64,000 bases of DNA from Candidatus Nomurabacteria bacterium. GTDB taxonomy: Bacteria; Patescibacteriota; Minisyncoccia; Phycocordibacterales; UBA9973. Positions 3,285 through 16,979 of the stretch are shown here, piece after piece. The stretch covers positions 19,816 to 83,815 of the forward strand of contig JACQGC010000004.1 in NCBI GenBank assembly GCA_016199805.1. Reading direction: 5' to 3'. Under the pieces are notes generated by a model, which searched no databases, was not told the origin of the DNA, and saw only the letters and a program-made list of their open reading frames with translations. A program made the position numbers and the translations under genes. Position 1 is the stretch's first letter, and each line of letters starts with the position of its first letter.

Positions 3285-3707
3285 CTATTTTACTTCTATC
3301 CCCATACTTCGGGCGGAGCCGGCGATGATATTGATTATGCCTTCGTCGTCTTTGGCATTCAGGTCAACTAATTTTTTCTTTCCTATTTCCAGAGCTTGAG
3401 CTCGGGTGATTTTACCCACCTTGGTGGTGGCGTTCTTGCCGGAACCCTTTTCCACTCCAGCAGCCTTTAGAATAAGGCCCGTAGCGGGAGGAGTTTTGAC
3501 GACGAAATCATAGCTGCGGTCTTCGTAGACGGTAATAGACACACCGACTTTGTCTCCGGCCATCTTGGCGGTTGCAGCGTTAAACTTGGTGACGAAGTCA
3601 CCGATGTTTATACCGGCCTGTCCGAGGGCAGGACCGAGCGGGGGTGCCGGGGTTGCCTTGGCGGCTTGGATTTGTAATTTAATTTTTTTGGTTATTTTCT
3701 TTGCCAT
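3285..3707 (-). CDS. rplK: 50S ribosomal protein L11
   Basis: [16 protein letters not shown] and KTPPA motifs, length 140 aa, classical secE-nusG-rplK context. Confidence 0.95.
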
Positions 3708-3816
3708 CCCAGTACTAAAATTTTTATTAATAATTAACTAACTTAATCTATACTATTTTGTCCCATTTGTCTATTTTTCTTTATATTGCCTATGTAGAAA
3801 TTTAGTACGGGACAAG
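3708..3816 (-). promoter_or_regulatory. conserved bipartite upstream element (variant copy) abutting the rplK start codon
   Basis: CCCAGTACTAAAATTTTT immediately 3' of the start codon on the plus strand, and AAATTTAGTACGGGACAAG ~90 nt away; the arms are an imperfect inverted repeat. Confidence 0.5.
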
Positions 3817-3823
3817 TATGATT

Positions 3824-4369
3824 TTATATCTTTTTTATCTGTAAAAAGTCGAGTTCAACCGGAGTTTCACGACCGAACATTGAAACCAACACTTTTACTT
3901 TTCCTCGGTCTTGGTCTACGGAGTTTACCTTACCCTCCAGTTCCTTGAATGGACCATCGGTAATGCGAACCGTCTCACCAATCTCCATTTCGATATTATG
4001 TTTGGTGGTACCGGCATCCATCTTTTTGAAAAGATAATCCACTTCTTCCTTTTTGAGAGGCACCGGATTTACTCCCGCGCCGACGAAACCGGTCACTCTG
4101 GGAGTGTTTCTGACTACATACCAGGAATCATCCGTTACAATCATATCTACCAACACGTAGCCGGGATATATCTTTTCTTCCACTTCCACTCGCTTGCCAC
4201 CTTTTATCTTTATTTTCTTTTCAATCGGAACGATGACGTTGAAAATTTTGTCATTCATGCCAAGAGAGTCTATGCGCTGCTTCAAATTACGTAGAACAAC
4301 GTTCTCGTATCCGGCATAAGTGTGTATGGCGTACCAATTTCTAATTCCCTCGTTTTCTTGTTTTGACAT
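3824..4369 (-). CDS. nusG: transcription termination/antitermination factor NusG
   Basis: NGN domain start WYAIHTYAGYENVV and C-terminal KOW region; gene order secE-nusG-rplK. Confidence 0.95.
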   Translation of the reverse strand: MSKQENEGIRNWYAIHTYAGYENVVLRNLKQRIDSLGMNDKIFNVIVPIEKKIKIKGGKRVEVEEKIYPGYVLVDMIVTDDSWYVVRNTPRVTGFVGAGVNPVPLKKEEVDYLFKKMDAGTTKHNIEMEIGETVRITDGPFKELEGKVNSVDQDRGKVKVLVSMFGRETPVELDFLQIKKI

Positions 4370-4443
4370 CCCAGTACTAAAATTTTAATTAATAATGTTT
4401 ATCGTTATGCCCCGTAATCAAAAATTTAGTACGGGACAGGTTT
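4370..4443 (-). promoter_or_regulatory. conserved bipartite upstream element (canonical copy) abutting the nusG start codon
   Basis: cccagtactaaaattttaatt...cccgtaatcaaaaatttagtacgggacaggtt; near-identical at both ends to the copy upstream of tsaE. Confidence 0.55.
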
Positions 4444-4448
4444 GATTT

Positions 4449-4634
4449 TTAGCCTATGATTTTCTGCAAGACTTGTGAAAAAATAAAATCCCAAATCCCC
4501 AAGTAATAAGCTACTACTACGGACAAAACAATGACTATCAAAGTATAGTATAAAGTTTGGTTCCTGGTCGGCCAAATTACGTGTTTGAGTTCTGTTTTTG
4601 TCTCCTTAAAATACTCGGTTATTTTTGATCCCAT
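4449..4634 (-). CDS. secE: preprotein translocase subunit SecE
   Basis: 61 aa; KETKTELKHVIWPTR followed by a single TM helix; position upstream of nusG. Confidence 0.85.
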   Translation of the reverse strand: MGSKITEYFKETKTELKHVIWPTRNQTLYYTLIVIVLSVVVAYYLGIWDFIFSQVLQKIIG

Positions 4635-4667
4635 AAGAAAATTTAAATACTAAAGTTTGGTGATACT

Positions 4668-4700
4668 TTTTGCCCTGTTGATTTTCTAACGGGACAAGCA
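4668..4700 (-). promoter_or_regulatory. diverged copy of the upstream element (ccctgttgattttctaacgggacaag) upstream of secE
   Basis: Shares the ttgattttctaacgggaca core with the copy upstream of rplS (16896-16922). Confidence 0.4.
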
Positions 4701-4705
4701 TATCT

Positions 4706-4728
4706 CTTTTAAAAAAGCCCCCTTTCAA
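4706..4728 (-). terminator. rho-independent terminator downstream of the SIMPL-domain gene
   Basis: Minus-strand hairpin AGCCC-TTGAAAGG-GGGCT followed by TTTTTT. Confidence 0.55.
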
Positions 4729-4765
4729 GGGCTCTTTTAACAGTACTATCTTTCAGTCCAAAATG

Positions 4766-4844
4766 CAACCCCCTAAATCCCCCTTGTCAGGGGGACTCCC
4801 CAATTTTCCATCCCCTGATAAGGGGAGGGTTAGGGAGGGGTTGT
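4766..4844. repeat. GC-rich palindromic element with terminal inverted repeats CAACCCC/GGGGTTG and two internal hairpins
   Basis: TCCCCC-TTGTCA-GGGGGA and TCCCCT-GATA-AGGGGA hairpins; GGTTAGGGAGGGGTTG tail resembles other family members. Confidence 0.6.
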
Positions 4845-4846
4845 AT

Positions 4847-6294: not shown

Positions 6295-7371
6295 TTACAC
6301 AATATTGACTTCGGGCTTTAATTCCAGCCCAAATTTTTCTTTCACCGAGGCTATGATTTTATTGGCCAATTCGATGATTTCTTCACCTTTTGCGCCACCG
6401 TGGTTTACCAAAACCAAGGCTTGCTTGTCGTGCACGCCGACATTCCCCATCCTTCTCCCCTTCCAACCGCATTGCTCTATCAGCCATCCGGCTGGAATTT
6501 TGTACTGTATTTCCCCCCTCTCCTTCGCAAGGAGAGGGGTTGGGGGTGAGGTCATATTTTCTTCTTCAAAGTGTGGAATTTCCGGATATTTTTTTTTGAG
6601 TATTTCCAATTCTGTTTTCGTCACAAAAACATTTTTAAAAAAGCTTCCGGCGTTGCCTATTATTTTCGGGTCGGGTAGTTTGCTTCTGCGTATCTCTGCC
6701 ACAGCGTCGCTGATATTTTTAAGTGTTGTTGTTTTGTTGGTTTTTTCCAAATAATCAGACAGAATCTTGTAAGAAACGTTTGGCTTTGGTGTCTTGCTTA
6801 ATTTTAAAGTCACTGCCGAAATAAAATATTTTCCTTTCAATTTATTTTTAAAAACACTATCCCTATAGCCAAGTTCGCATTCTTCACAGCTAAAAATTTT
6901 TTTCTCTCCGCTCTCAATCTCAAAAGTTTCCACACTAAAAAGAGTATCTTTGAGTTCGGCTCCGTAGGCGCCAATGTTTTGCATCGGCGCCGCACCGACT
7001 GTACCCGGAATGAGAGACAAGTTTTCAATTCCCCAATATCCTTTATCTACGGCAAACAACACAAGACCATGCCAGCTTTCACCGCCCATCGCTCTAATAT
7101 AAACACACTCTTTCCCGACCCCTGTCGGGACCCCGACTTTGGTCGGGGCTATACCTTTTACTTTATTTAAAATAACTATACCGTCGAAATCTTTTGTAAA
7201 AAGAACATTACTTCCACCACCCAAAAATATTTTTTTGTTATTTTTAAATTCAGGCGTCGCCAAAAGTTCTTTCAAGTCTTCTTCTGAATTTAACTCGACA
7301 AAAAACTTGGCGTTTACAGAAATACCGAAAGTGTTTAATTTAAGCAGATTGTAATTATTTTCTAATATCAT
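6295..7371 (-). CDS. murB: UDP-N-acetylenolpyruvoylglucosamine reductase MurB
   Basis: LGGGSNVLF, GIENLSLIPGTVGAAPMQNIGAYG and GNAGSFFKN motifs; start taken at MILENNYN (the ORF-track N-terminus overlaps the upstream gene); contains an in-frame palindromic insertion. Confidence 0.9.
   Translation of the reverse strand: MILENNYNLLKLNTFGISVNAKFFVELNSEEDLKELLATPEFKNNKKIFLGGGSNVLFTKDFDGIVILNKVKGIAPTKVGVPTGVGKECVYIRAMGGESWHGLVLFAVDKGYWGIENLSLIPGTVGAAPMQNIGAYGAELKDTLFSVETFEIESGEKKIFSCEECELGYRDSVFKNKLKGKYFISAVTLKLSKTPKPNVSYKILSDYLEKTNKTTTLKNISDAVAEIRRSKLPDPKIIGNAGSFFKNVFVTKTELEILKKKYPEIPHFEEENMTSPPTPLLAKERGEIQYKIPAGWLIEQCGWKGRRMGNVGVHDKQALVLVNHGGAKGEEIIELANKIIASVKEKFGLELKPEVNIV
6511..6553. repeat. 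palindromic element copy inserted in-frame in murB
   Basis: cccccctctcc-ttcgcaa-ggagagggg followed by ttgggggtgaggt; translated in murB as MTSPPTPLLAKERGEI. Confidence 0.65.
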
Positions 7372-7372
7372 A

Positions 7373-8647
7373 TCAATGTCCCAATGTAAAAAACATCGCC
7401 ACTGCCGCTGCCCCCATAAGCACAAAAGTACCCCAGACTAGTATGTTTGATACATTACCACTCTTGTGTTCACCCATGATTTTTTCGTTCCTGGCTATCT
7501 TGCCGATTATAAAGATAAGTGGAACGGCGGCTACGCCATTGAATACAGCGGTATAAACCAAGGCTTTAATCGGGTCTATGCCAATGAAATTTATCATCAA
7601 GCCGACAATGGTGGCGATAGTGATGACTCCATAAAATCCATGAGCTTTTTTTAATTTCAAATTCAAACTTTCTTTCCAATTTAAAGTTTCGGCGACGGCA
7701 TAAGAAGCGGAAGCGGAAAGCACCGGCACGGCCAGGAGTCCGAGCCCGATGACTCCGACGGCAAAAATCAACTTGGCTAAAAATCCCGCATATGGAAATG
7801 TATGCACCAAGGGCTCCAGGGCTTTGGCCGCGTCCGCGGCGGTGGCGATATTGGTTATGCCATGAGTGTTTAGGACTGTGGCAGCAACGACGATGATACA
7901 CCATGTGGCTATTTCCGAAGACAGCATCCCGACAAAATTATCAATTCTAAGATTTTTGAGAAAAGATTTTGTAATATGTGTCTCGCCGTGTTTTAAGAGG
8001 TGCTTAGCTCGTTCTTCTTCCACTTCTTCGGACGCTTGCCAAAAAAACATATATGGGGAAATAGTCGTTCCGAAGACACCAGTAATGATAAAAAGAAAAG
8101 CAAAACTCAATTCAATATGCGGAATGAAGGTGGCTTTTAATATCGTCAACCAGGGTTGTTTGACTAAAAATAAAGTCAAAGGATAAGCGAGCAAAGAAAA
8201 AGCCAGCCATTTCAAAATCTTGGCATATTTTTTATAGGAGATAAATATTTCCAGTGACAAAATCAGGGCGGTAAAAAAAAGTGTCAGCACTGTCAGGTTG
8301 ATTGGCAAAACAAGCTGCGCGGCGGCCGCCATCGCCCCCAAATCTGCTCCGATATTGATCGTATTGGCTAAAACAATAAGGACGACTGCCGCATAAAGCA
8401 TTTTCTTGCTGTAATTTTCTTTAATCACGGCGGCAATTCCTTTGCCAGTTACCGCCCCGATTCTGGCGCAAGCCTCCTGAATGGCGGTCATAAACGGCAA
8501 TAGCAATAAAGCTGTCCAGAGTTGCCCATAACCAAATTGCGAACCGGTCTGCGAATAAGTGGCGATGCCCGAAGGGTCATCATCCGCCGCGCCGGTAATA
8601 ATCCCCGGCCCCAGTTTTTTCCAAAAGCTTTTTCTCATATATTTCAT
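7373..8647 (-). CDS. NRAMP-family divalent metal cation transporter (MntH-like)
   Basis: GPGIITGAADDDPSGIATYSQ N-terminal signature resembling the Nramp GPGxLxxxAxxDPGN motif; 11-12 TM helices. Confidence 0.65.
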   Translation of the reverse strand: MKYMRKSFWKKLGPGIITGAADDDPSGIATYSQTGSQFGYGQLWTALLLLPFMTAIQEACARIGAVTGKGIAAVIKENYSKKMLYAAVVLIVLANTINIGADLGAMAAAAQLVLPINLTVLTLFFTALILSLEIFISYKKYAKILKWLAFSLLAYPLTLFLVKQPWLTILKATFIPHIELSFAFLFIITGVFGTTISPYMFFWQASEEVEEERAKHLLKHGETHITKSFLKNLRIDNFVGMLSSEIATWCIIVVAATVLNTHGITNIATAADAAKALEPLVHTFPYAGFLAKLIFAVGVIGLGLLAVPVLSASASYAVAETLNWKESLNLKLKKAHGFYGVITIATIVGLMINFIGIDPIKALVYTAVFNGVAAVPLIFIIGKIARNEKIMGEHKSGNVSNILVWGTFVLMGAAAVAMFFTLGH

Positions 8648-9639
8648 TTTAGCATTTTCTGCAATTTATATGCATTCCCATGTTTCAACATCCCCAAATA
8701 AGATTGAATCGTTGCTGGTTTCTGGCTATTTTTCACATTCTTAAGCATTCTCCTTTCCGTGCTAGTCCGCAAAACTCTATGCTCAGGAAAATGTACCCAG
8801 CCAAGAAAATCCACACCAGAAGCAATGGTTTTAATATAAACTTTATCTGGGTGCATTTGTAATTTTAATTTGTTTTCCAAAAATTCTTCCATTTTTTCTA
8901 ACACATTTTCTAAATACTTTTTGTCTTCACTCAAAACAACAAAATCATCAGCATATCGTATGTAATATTTCACTTTCAATTCTCTTTTTGCAAACTGGTC
9001 AAATTCATTCATATAGATATTTACTAAAAGTTGAGAAGTTAAATTACCAAGCGGTAGACCTTTTTGCATATTTACGCTATCGCGCATATATGCATCTGTG
9101 TAAAAACTGTCTATCACTTGTGAAAGTAGCCATAAAATATATATGTCAAAGACCGTCTTTGACAATATTCCTTTTAAGATTTGATGATCAATATTCGCAA
9201 AGAATTTTCGGATGTCGCATTTTAATACAAGGCAAGACCTTGTACTGTTTTTGGAAACTTTAAAAATATAGTCTTGAAATCTATTTATTGCTTTATGGGT
9301 GCCTTTGTTTACCCTGCAGGAATACGAATCATTTATAAATTTGGAGTCAAAATATTCATACAGTTCTTGGTAAATTAAATGGTGAAGCAATCTGTCTCGT
9401 ACTGTAGCTTTATGGATTATTCTTGGTTTGGGGTCAGAAATATTGAAAGCTGTGTAACCTCCGTGAGTATATGTTTTGTTTTTTAAATCATTATGTAGAT
9501 CGAGAATATTATCCATCAACTTAGCTTGAAATAGAATCACGTCTTTCCTATCTTTTTTATCATGTAAAAATTCCTGCCAAGCTTTGAGCAGTTTTTCTAC
9601 AGTTATGATATTATCGTAAGTATGCATAAATTGTTTCAT
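8644..9639 (-). CDS. DGR-type reverse transcriptase
   Basis: RT motifs DIRKFFANIDH, LPLGNLTSQLLVNIY (DGR-specific GxxxSQ motif 4), YADDFVV and FLGW thumb; no maturase or endonuclease domains; TR/VR pair adjacent. Confidence 0.85.
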   Translation of the reverse strand: MKQFMHTYDNIITVEKLLKAWQEFLHDKKDRKDVILFQAKLMDNILDLHNDLKNKTYTHGGYTAFNISDPKPRIIHKATVRDRLLHHLIYQELYEYFDSKFINDSYSCRVNKGTHKAINRFQDYIFKVSKNSTRSCLVLKCDIRKFFANIDHQILKGILSKTVFDIYILWLLSQVIDSFYTDAYMRDSVNMQKGLPLGNLTSQLLVNIYMNEFDQFAKRELKVKYYIRYADDFVVLSEDKKYLENVLEKMEEFLENKLKLQMHPDKVYIKTIASGVDFLGWVHFPEHRVLRTSTERRMLKNVKNSQKPATIQSYLGMLKHGNAYKLQKMLK

Positions 9640-9748: not shown

Positions 9749-10006
9749 TTGGGTGGAAAGATTGAAGATTATTTCCTCGGGTTGTTGGAAAACATTTTCA
9801 TTTCTATTTATCTACCGCCGGAAACTAAAATTCCCCGACTTATTATCGCAATTTCTAAACTTGATGGAGTTAAGTTTTTTCTACAAATCGCTTGGGAAAA
9901 TAAATGTATTAGTAATGAAAAATATTCCCAGCTTTCAGAAAAATTAGATGAAATTGGAAAAATGCTTGGTGGTTGGAAAAAAGGCCTAGAAAAGAAAACT
10001 CCCTGA
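9749..10006 (+). CDS. Avd-like four-helix-bundle protein (short or truncated; TTG start)
   Basis: C-terminus SEKLDEIGKMLGGWKKGLEKK and LPPETK segment match the TIGR02436/Avd family pattern (..FPKDE.. / ..EEVSKMLNGL..); about 30 aa shorter than typical and on the strand opposite the RT. Confidence 0.4.
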   Translation: MGGKIEDYFLGLLENIFISIYLPPETKIPRLIIAISKLDGVKFFLQIAWENKCISNEKYSQLSEKLDEIGKMLGGWKKGLEKKTP

Positions 10007-12375: not shown

Positions 12376-12447
12376 CCCAGTACTAAAATTTTAATTTATA
12401 AACCCTATCTTTATTACCCGTAATCAAAAATTTAGTACGGGACAGGT
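12376..12447 (-). promoter_or_regulatory. conserved bipartite upstream element (canonical copy) abutting the tsaE start codon
   Basis: cccagtactaaaattttaattt...cccgtaatcaaaaatttagtacgggacaggtt; ends near-identical to the nusG copy. Confidence 0.55.
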
Positions 12448-12487
12448 TGCTTTCATATTAACATATTTTGGTGTATTATCTTAAGAC

Positions 12488-16854: not shown

Positions 16855-16922
16855 CCCATTAAAAAATTTAAATAATAAAAGTACTACTTCCTGCAAGTCC
16901 GTTGATTTTCTAACGGGACACG
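16855..16922 (-). promoter_or_regulatory. diverged copy of the upstream element upstream of rplS
   Basis: CATCCCA..aaaagtactac.. then tccgttgattttctaacgggaca; shares both halves with the rplK/nusG/tsaE/secE copies. Confidence 0.4.
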
Positions 16923-16979
16923 TTGCCAAAACACTTTAACATAAAAGTTTTTCAAAGGCAACTAAGAATTATTTTTAAA

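Follow-up and report, generated by a model that had tools for sequence, protein, structure and literature searches.

A 64,000-nucleotide stretch of a Candidatus Nomurabacteria contig (JACQGC010000004.1; hereafter the window) contains five copies of a short hairpin element, all of them on the minus strand, which is the coding strand here, upstream of rplK, nusG, secE, tsaE and rplS. The element is a dispersed palindromic cassette of fixed orientation. It lies between a stop codon, or a predicted transcription start (+1), and the ATG of the following gene, and its two arms are complementary to each other in the sense strand. We suggest, with a probability of about one half, that it belongs to a family akin to miniature inverted-repeat transposable elements (MITEs) and to REPINs (repetitive extragenic palindromic doublets forming hairpins) and persists as an RNA hairpin leader. 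Such a leader would hold the AUG at the point where ribosomes arrive and would mask it until the hairpin is opened.

Copies of the element in the window

Read on the minus strand, the element begins with a 5' arm, (A)CYTGTCCCGTACTAAATTTTTGATTA, continues through an AT-rich variable interior and ends with a 3' arm, TTAAAATTTTAGTACTGGG, that abuts the ATG (Table 1). The motif TGTCCCGTWMKAAAWT has five exact matches in the window and these are the five copies; shuffled sequences give 0.65 matches even if two mismatches are allowed. The 19-mer AAATTTTAGTACTGGGATG, which ends in ATG, matches exactly three times against 0.03 expected. An unfiltered covariance model run over the whole 64 kb returned the five known copies and no further convincing one. 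Pfam matches confirm the identity of TsaE, L19 and SecE; NusG is recognized by its 94% homologues and RplK by sequence.

The nusG copy has the arms CCTGTCCCGTACTAAATTTTTGATTA (5') and TAATTAAAATTTTAGTACTGGG (3'). Its minimum free energy (MFE) fold is a single long hairpin of -21.2 kcal/mol (z -4.1), and it scores 97 bits with the covariance model. The tsaE copy is identical to it at 63 of 71 positions, folds at -19.0 kcal/mol and scores 90 bits. Orthologues of the long rplK copy measure 108-110 nt in L019, L113 and L191, and about 115 nt as extracted in L021 (labels of this form denote loci or contigs that we compared with the window). The block AAATAGACAAA.GGGA.AAAATAGT.TAGATT is kept in all five rplK copies, while adjacent interior bases vary.

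The copies of secE and rplS are of the diverged type B, whose arms in the window read TGTCCCGTTAGAAAAT and ATTTTYTWATGGG. The secE copy folds at -16.4 kcal/mol and scores 39.5 bits, and the same type stands before secE in L020 and L034. These two loci read GGG ATG TCA AAA, whereas the window reads cttATGGGAtc at its secE start (4627-4634, minus strand). Because of a loss of 2 nt relative to L020 and L034, the secE ATG of the window has come to lie inside the 3' arm, so that the start is shifted and one codon is gained.

A first-pass annotation of this DNA had placed copies upstream of the same five genes, and all of them are present. Its description of a repeated, bipartite, self-complementary element fused to start codons, in place of any Shine-Dalgarno sequence, is likewise supported. 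The 11-bp stem with one bulge that it proposed is too short: we count 17-22 bp, interrupted by a bulged U and a U.U mismatch, and the stem includes the A and the U of AUG. It also gave GGG directly before ATG as the end of the proximal arm. All five copies do end in GGG beside the start codon; in secE the ATG in use lies within the arm.

Table 1. Copies of the element and associated promoter-like sequences in the window
Feature	Positions	Strand	Description
nusG copy, type A, 71 nt	4370-4440	minus	fills the secE-nusG spacer; nusG ATG at 4369-4367
tsaE copy, type A, 71 nt	12376-12446	minus	entire predicted 5' untranslated region; ATG at 12375-12373
Predicted tsaE extended -10 promoter, TGTTAATAT	12455-12463	minus	its end lies 7 nt upstream of the A in front of the element; putative start
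rplK copy, type A long, 109 nt	3708-3816	minus	from nusG stop to rplK ATG (3707-3705); type A arms plus an additional interior segment
TAGACA-17 nt-TAGATT inside rplK copy	3745-3773	minus	promoter-like; putative promoter function
secE copy, type B (diverged)	4630-4698	minus	arms TGTCCCGTTAGAAAAT (5') and ATTTTCTTATGGG (3'); secE ATG at 4634-4632, within the 3' arm
rplS copy, type B (diverged)	16855-16922	minus	predicted 5' untranslated region of rplS; ATG at 16854-16852; covariance model 43 bits
Predicted rplS promoter, TTGCCT-17 nt-(TGT)TAAAGT	16933-16961	minus	upstream of the element; putative

Folding and covariation of the arms

Folded singly, four of the five copies in the window adopt the long hairpin as their MFE structure, with energies of -16 to -21 kcal/mol. 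The wider family, whose sampling is described in the next section, behaves in the same way. Its 128 unique copies have a mean fold energy of -19.4 kcal/mol and a median z of -3.2. The predicted fold pairs CCC with the GGG next to the ATG in 120 of them, and the A of AUG is paired in 121. The sense strand folds more stably than its reverse complement in 123 of 127 copies (-19.0 versus -14.3 kcal/mol), and this bias is also present in 12 of the 13 copies that are not of type A. It is due to G.U pairs and would not be expected of an inverted repeat that acts at the level of DNA.

The 3' arm was not subject to selection by our search. Its paired positions -17 to -6 are conserved at 95-100%. At position -5, opposite a G, there is C in 91%, T (with a wobble G.U pair kept) in eight copies and A in three. 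Bases outside the pairs are free to vary, and the bulged one is T in 100 copies, C in 20 and G in one.

Between subtypes the arms change together: ACUAAAUUU goes with AAAUUUUAGU, AAUAAAUU with AAUUUUAUU, and UUAGAAAAU with AUUUUYUAA. The 5' and 3' arms are, respectively, GUACUAAAUUU and AAAUUU(U)AGUAC in type A, GUAAUAAAUU and AAUUUUAUUAC in L041, GUUGUAAAUUU and AAAUUUAUUAC in L021, GUUAGAAAAU and either AUUUUCUAAU or AUUUUUUAAU in type B, GUUAAAAAAU and AUUUUUUAAU in L144 and L165, and CAUUGAAAA and UUUUUAAUG in L017. When ten type B sequences are aligned, 98.7% of the cells pair, compared with 37-64% if the partner is slid, and one pair is GU in four sequences, AU in three and GC in three. 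The type B 5' arm has, in addition, a local partner in the interior (92.9% of cells pair, and 20-50% when it is slid); two pairs of this local alternative have compensatory changes, both of them contributed by L017. A comparable alternative is found in the commonest type A subfamily (CCCGUA...UACGGG) and in the rplK copies (UUGUCCC...GGGACAA), and it is absent in another subfamily. An extension of the helix into the coding region was considered and rejected, as the element base Y3 has no pairing tendency toward the first base of codon 2.

Pairing over the initiation region, covariation of the arms and strand bias, by which a start-codon-masking cis-regulatory hairpin can be recognized, are all found in these modeled structures.

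Masking is only one of the roles that a helix of this kind could have. The hairpin might instead be an RNase III processing or stability module, in which cutting of the approximately 22-bp helix separates cistrons and sets mRNA half-life, any effect on translation being secondary. The length of the helix, about two turns (17-22 bp), its conserved bulge and mismatch, and the location of most copies between co-directional genes would suit such a module. Bacteria of the Candidate Phyla Radiation (CPR) retain RNase III (rnc), along with RNase J and PNPase (PMC12641178). There is also a precedent: the hairpin RNA of Correia elements is a target of RNase III, which binds it, and it is either cut or protected (PMC2649163). 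However, the sequences carry no sign of cleavage, the module would not explain why the 3' arm ends exactly at the ATG, and a cut in the middle of the helix would leave a GC-clamped duplex over the start codon. We regard this role as somewhat unlikely.

As a side observation, the DHFR copy of L023 (7151-7239, minus strand) has an 11-nt mini-hairpin, ACGACTTCGTC, inserted in its 5' arm, which would make a three-way junction.

A clade-restricted family in front of unrelated genes

Metagenome contigs (at least 120) were selected by an exact match to the type A 5' arm, CYTGTCCCGTACTAAATTT, and pooled with the genome loci, which gave 131 matches on both strands. The counts in this section are among the matches listed. 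Copies are related by descent, so that the counts are not independent; genes were called by open reading frame (ORF) heuristics, and E-values of the covariance model are rough.

Both arms are present in sense orientation in 129 of the 131 matches, and in 125 the element abuts an ATG directly; of 121 unique copies, 117 have ATG as start codon. Every complete copy is sense-oriented and adjoins a start codon, and none is located at a 3' end or between convergent genes. The exceptions are instructive in their detail. Six copies have a single-base change in GGG with the ATG still adjacent. In L111 the ATG has become ATA and a replacement ATG follows 9 nt downstream. In three orthologues (L125:3445-3558, L169 from 1500 and L171 from 3438) it has become ATT; there the ORF starts within the element (MIKEDKNKLKLKSKSKILVLGLIML...), and the 3' arm is translated as KILVLG, part of a signal-anchor peptide. 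One copy (L136) is interrupted by the end of its contig. We also observed a lone 5' arm at the start of contig L170, joined to a tRNA region, which may be a chimeric join.

The downstream genes belong to all functional classes: 79 non-redundant proteins hit 100 Pfam families. These include FtsW, FtsA, DnaB, DHFR, Ddl, PGK, ClpP, SecY, RNase H, GatA and RmlD, as well as TsaD, PheT, TGT, RRF, a DNA polymerase III delta-type subunit, an XerC-type integrase, a penicillin-binding protein and S9. The regulon of the translation machinery that the first-pass annotation had envisaged is thereby rejected. The check it had proposed was to scan the genome for the motif and tabulate downstream genes. Carried out here on metagenome contigs, that scan upholds the position at gene starts and fails the regulon.

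The diversity of these genes also bears on the possibility that the element is a protein-binding DNA operator, or a leader that senses a ligand or a ribosomal protein (a riboswitch or an autoregulatory site). The high conservation of the arms could reflect sequence-specific recognition. Against this, the genes are functionally unrelated, and the arms are spaced by anything between about 20 and 90 nt, with no helical phasing. Nor is there a ligand pocket, as subfamilies do not share a conserved interior. In the window only tRNAs pass the Rfam gathering scores, and nothing credible was found at 3600-4800 with E up to 10. An operator or sensing leader is very improbable in our opinion.

Lengths range from 70 to 143 nt and fall into size classes of 70-72 nt, 100-110 nt and, rarely, about 140 nt. 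Copies in front of unrelated genes on the same contig can be nearly identical, as with DHFR and a MazG-like gene in L100 (69/70) or L13 and S9 in L149 (68/71). Orthologous genes mostly keep their size class (L11 108-110 nt, PheT 100-106 nt, YraN 72 nt), and exceptions are DHFR (70-71 or 107 nt) and FtsA (70-77 or 103 nt). The near-identical copies within contigs, taken together with the orthologue-specific size classes, point to vertical inheritance under constraint combined with copying or conversion within genomes.

Of the first 41 loci, 14 contain copies according to the covariance model, about 18 in total, and the 39 more distant loci contain none. All loci with the element have a NusG that shares about 85% identity or more with that of the window; the element is clade-restricted. 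Judged by NusG, the relatives belong to the Patescibacteria/Paceibacteria, and most of them bear the label Nomurabacteria. Carriage by a phage or virus was rejected after a search of viral contigs yielded no matches. Contigs L108, L109 and L126 begin 5-6 nt before the element, and several contig starts lie 5-9 nt before it. Since several contigs begin in this way, the element probably breaks metagenome assemblies.

Insertion between a stop codon or predicted promoter and the ATG

How translation starts in this organism matters for what follows. An SD-like (Shine-Dalgarno-like) core is present in only 4 of the 53 window ORFs that begin with ATG. A TAnnnT that ends 5-7 nt before the ATG is present in 15 of the 53, against 2-8 at shifted registers, and six of the 15 have TGn in front of it, against 0-1. 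It follows that leaderless genes behind extended -10 promoters are common in the window. In the segment 2567-3707 (minus strand) the gene after rplK encodes a Vut_1 transporter and is not rplA. There is a subgroup of Parcubacteria that has neither uL1 nor the anti-SD motif (PMC9297842), and the absence of rplA at this place is consistent with membership in it. A 16S gene was sought in the fetched loci for its anti-SD tail, and none was present there.

The sequences upstream of different copies are unrelated except for an A at -1 (97% of 122 distinct flanks) and a T at -2 (68%). The left edge could be tallied for 113 copies with enough upstream sequence, counting co-directional ORFs of at least 80 codons. 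In 62 of them (55%) a stop codon occurs 1-7 nt before the element or inside its 5' arm, in the latter case as the UAA of GUACUAAA or as a UAG. Another 29 (26%) have TAnnnT, often with TGn, at the leaderless register, that is, a -10 followed by 6 nt and A, then CYUGUCCC. The two situations account for 81% of the copies, and in the second the element stands where a leaderless ATG would be. Among the 22 others are copies behind short ORFs, for example the nusG copy of the window, which comes after a secE of 61 codons. Spacers between stop and start codons in these genomes have their peaks at -4 and at 1-6 nt.

Orthologous sites can be filled or empty. At nusG the element is present in 5 of 80 loci (L002, L003, L020, L035 and L041), and the others have the secE stop, 5-30 AT-rich nucleotides and the ATG. 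The closest relative, L036 (NusG 95%, RplK 99%), has no element at nusG, rplK or secE. In L006, L019, L005 and L010, rplS has no leader or almost none behind TTGCCT-17-TGTTAAAGT. This promoter is retained in the window, L001 and L002, where the element separates it from the ATG; its conservation in L001, L002, L006 and L019 does not depend on the presence of the element. At tsaE the promoter of L010 and L033 is AATACACCAAAWTATGYTAATAT and the gene is leaderless, reading ...TGCTAATAT-6/7 nt-ATG, while the element is present in the window and in L005. The element is thus an insertion/deletion difference between close relatives at leaderless or tightly coupled genes. A small mobile palindrome, which the first-pass annotation had mentioned as an alternative, was close to the mark, given the filled and empty sites and the near-identical copies before unrelated genes.

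One could go further and see in it a purely selfish MITE. Its arms would be terminal inverted repeats read by a transposase, the RNA hairpin would have no function, and its position would simply tell where insertions are tolerated in a compact genome. Much agrees with this. There are the inverted arms, CCCGTACTAAATTTT and AAAATTTTAGTAC(T)GGG, around a variable interior, the discrete size classes, the filled and empty sites, the nearly identical copies on one contig, and contigs that break at the element as they do at repeats (L108, L109, L126). Terminal inverted repeats, dispersed copies and insertion polymorphism are what defines MITEs, and all are found; insertion in either orientation and at varied positions, which also belongs to the definition, is not. 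Every complete copy has instead the same orientation, with none at 3' ends or between convergent genes among the matches listed, and the greater stability of the sense RNA is not something that DNA repeats require. There is no clear target-site duplication: the flanks are (T)A on the left and ATG on the right, with at most a 1-nt repeat of A and no TA...TA. No parent element with the same ends occurs in 2.1 Mb of fetched loci. Finally, gene-specific subtypes common to several species (L11, PheT, YraN, FtsW) keep their arms while the interiors have diverged, which indicates selection after insertion. A purely selfish element is therefore, to our mind, unlikely.

Promoter-like sequences and small ORFs inside the element

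Several features of the interior recall promoters. The first-pass annotation had read a shared promoter from TTGATT, spaced 17-19 nt from a TATAAT-like box. We count 19-21 nt, to TAT(T/A)AA, and neither the copies of rplK, secE and rplS nor the other subfamilies have TTGATT. Such a promoter is not general, and TTGATT was rejected as a -35 on both grounds.

Nevertheless, the element as a whole could be a portable promoter with a short leader. Transcription would then start inside it, the 3' arm would be an initiation leader and the 5' arm only upstream DNA. All ftsA copies have a perfect extended -10, TGATATAAT, at a fixed position 33-34 nt before the ATG and no upstream promoter; several other copies carry such boxes. 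All rplK copies share the -35/-10 pair TAGACA-17-TAGATT. The -10 scores upstream of and inside the element are weakly anticorrelated (rho -0.20, p 0.03). Yet the box of the commonest subfamily is cATAA., in which the critical last base is not conserved, and 41 of 111 copies (among the matches listed) have a good -10 neither upstream nor inside. Upstream promoters at the exact leaderless register have been kept and are conserved across species that share an insertion, as at rplS in the window, L001 and L002. The complementarity and covariation of the arms and the bias toward the sense strand would remain unexplained. On balance a portable promoter is quite improbable as the function of the family. 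The internal box has the look of a proto-promoter, one that became a mature promoter in some copies.

We also looked for reading frames inside the element. A leader ORF from a 5'-proximal UUG or CUG was rejected: the places at which it stops are not conserved, and in the long class it terminates about 38% of the way through the leader. A 10-codon upstream ORF, M..INKNLKF* (consensus M-x-x-I-N-K-N-L-K-F-stop), stops at the UAG of the 3' arm, 7 nt before the main AUG. Examples are L003:9896-10000, L089, L142 and L181, from the subfamily with ...AATAAAAATTTAAAATTTTAG. As a universal feature it was rejected as well: it is present in only 27 of 113 copies, in one subfamily lineage, and some of these have ATA for ATG.

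A possible mode of action

We return to the suggestion that the element acts as a hairpin leader. It would be transcribed as part of the mRNA and would fold into an imperfect hairpin of 17-22 bp. The base of the helix, GUCCC/GGGAU, would mask positions -3 to +2 of the start site, and the hairpin would hold the AUG beside the upstream stop codon or beside the 5' end.

In operon-internal copies, which are the majority, a ribosome that terminates 1-7 nt before the helix, or in the 5' arm, would have to melt the helix base. Counted from the first base of the A-site codon, a terminating ribosome covers roughly another 13 nt, as known from toeprinting and helicase studies. Melting of GUCCC/GGGAU would expose the AUG while it is still tethered by the upper helix. 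This would result in translational coupling across a looped-out insert.

Promoter-proximal copies would work differently. Their helix would start some 3-5 nt from the predicted 5' end and might serve as a stabilizer against decay of the RNase J type; a helix near the 5' end is the geometry that protects mRNAs from 5'-end-dependent decay. Here the AUG would remain masked until the helix is opened or cut, e.g. by RNase III. Where a promoter has probably evolved in the loop (ftsA, rplK), transcripts from it would be made without the 5' arm and would be open from the outset. The element has probably spread in the manner of a MITE or a REPIN, or by gene conversion, and would have been kept only where this geometry leaves expression intact.

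A more daring version is also conceivable. In a lineage that has for the most part abandoned Shine-Dalgarno pairing, the hairpin may be a tether, such that a ribosome that has terminated, or has engaged the 5' end, starts at an AUG that is 70-110 nt away in sequence and adjacent in space. If correct, this would be a bacterial counterpart of shunting, brought about by a mobile cassette, and the cassette could have spread because this precise position is the only one at which translation would not be disturbed by it. We think this version improbable.

A number of considerations weigh against the hairpin leader. Transcription starts, processing and translation are all inferred, the starts being predicted from the geometry of -10 sequences. 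A helix of about -19 kcal/mol over the AUG should repress initiation, yet many of the downstream genes are essential, so that an opener is required. The idea of coupling fails for promoter-proximal copies, because there is no upstream ribosome. That stop codons are so close to the left edge may be a mere record of insertion sites and no functional requirement, since short spacers between stop and start are common in these genomes anyway. Covariation within type A carries no information, as the 5' arm was set by the search itself. In the 3' arm of type A, about 11 substitutions preserve a wobble pair and about 8 destroy a pair, which is no clear excess, and a clear excess of G.U wobble substitutions was accordingly dropped as a candidate signal. 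Lastly, the model offers no mechanism for new copies to land exactly at an ATG.

Comparison with known elements

In the literature on leaderless or Shine-Dalgarno initiation in Patescibacteria/CPR, and on repeats and hairpins of Parcubacteria, we found no description of the element. Among known elements it comes closest to the REPINs, treated below, and to the Correia elements of Neisseria (CREE/NEMIS), which are also short (about 100-155 bp), multi-copy and bounded by inverted repeats, with size classes that differ by interior segments (PMC2649163). They are co-transcribed with their neighbours and can carry or create promoters. However, they insert at TA with a duplication, in both orientations and at variable distances from genes, whereas the element described here is always sense, flush with the ATG and without TA...TA. 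Its arm sequence differs from the 26-bp Correia repeat, and its host is a Parcubacteria lineage with few Shine-Dalgarno sites.

REPINs share with it the two inverted arms of about 25 nt, the imperfect hairpin of 70-110 nt, the many copies and the restriction to a clade (PMC8049555, PMC3184786). They are GC-rich, mostly extragenic at 3' ends and have no fixed register to start codons, whereas every copy of the element is directly 5' of an ATG. No gene for a RAYT (REP-associated tyrosine transposase), on which REPINs depend, turned up, although no systematic search for PF01797 was made.

Single hairpins with a related geometry are known. In genes 38 and 25 of phage T4, a hairpin loops out sequence within the initiation region, in a manner that relies on the spacing between the Shine-Dalgarno sequence and the AUG. 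In shunting on the eukaryotic 35S leader of cauliflower mosaic virus (CaMV), a short ORF ends a few nucleotides before the base of a stem and initiation resumes just after it. The likeness is that a stable stem brings two functional points together; here the helix follows the stop by 1-7 nt and is itself followed directly by the AUG. The T4 and CaMV hairpins are single, gene-specific cases, whereas the element is a dispersed repeat family in a bacterium, with a predicted action.

Putative mobile promoters are recognized as near-identical upstream regions before unrelated genes, within and between genomes (PMC3575422). In these it is the promoter that is conserved; in the element it is the arms of the transcribed hairpin, and upstream promoters differ from copy to copy. 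None of the Correia elements, the REPINs or the T4 and CaMV hairpins is known to keep to the sense orientation and to abut the start codons of a hundred gene families.

Other features of the window

Three further observations are recorded here. Upstream of secE (4711-4734, minus strand) there is a promoter-like TTGACT-17-TATTAT, directly followed by a hairpin, GAGCCCttgaaaGGGGGC, and a run of T; the arrangement is the same in most of L002-L049. This terminator-like stem at the predicted start of a transcript may act as an attenuator or give rise to a tiny RNA.

A second dispersed palindrome, CCCCTCTCC-loop-GGAGAGGGG, often flanked by CACCCC...GGGGTG, occurs at 6517, 26193, 32351, 54615 and 62893 (plus-strand coordinates). 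Three of the five sites are inside long ORFs. It is also found in L018 and L031, and related GC-rich palindromes are located at 4760-4845.

A reverse transcriptase gene (RVT_1, E 7e-26; 8644-9639, minus strand) adjoins a divergent bAvd-like accessory gene (9749-10006, plus strand). The pair looks like a diversity-generating retroelement.

Implications

Most genes of the window look leaderless or devoid of a Shine-Dalgarno sequence. The element may be regarded as a natural experiment on what ribosomes need in such an organism, as a long hairpin is tolerated directly before nusG, secE, ftsA, ftsW, dnaB and aminoacyl-tRNA synthetase genes. It has practical uses too: it marks true start codons, it is a clade-specific sequence tag, and it should be kept in mind where metagenome assemblies break. 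Gating or bridging of initiation by the hairpin would, if real, amount to translational coupling of a new kind. Should the hairpin mainly serve as a stabilizer or an RNase III site, it would be the first dispersed post-transcriptional module described for CPR bacteria.

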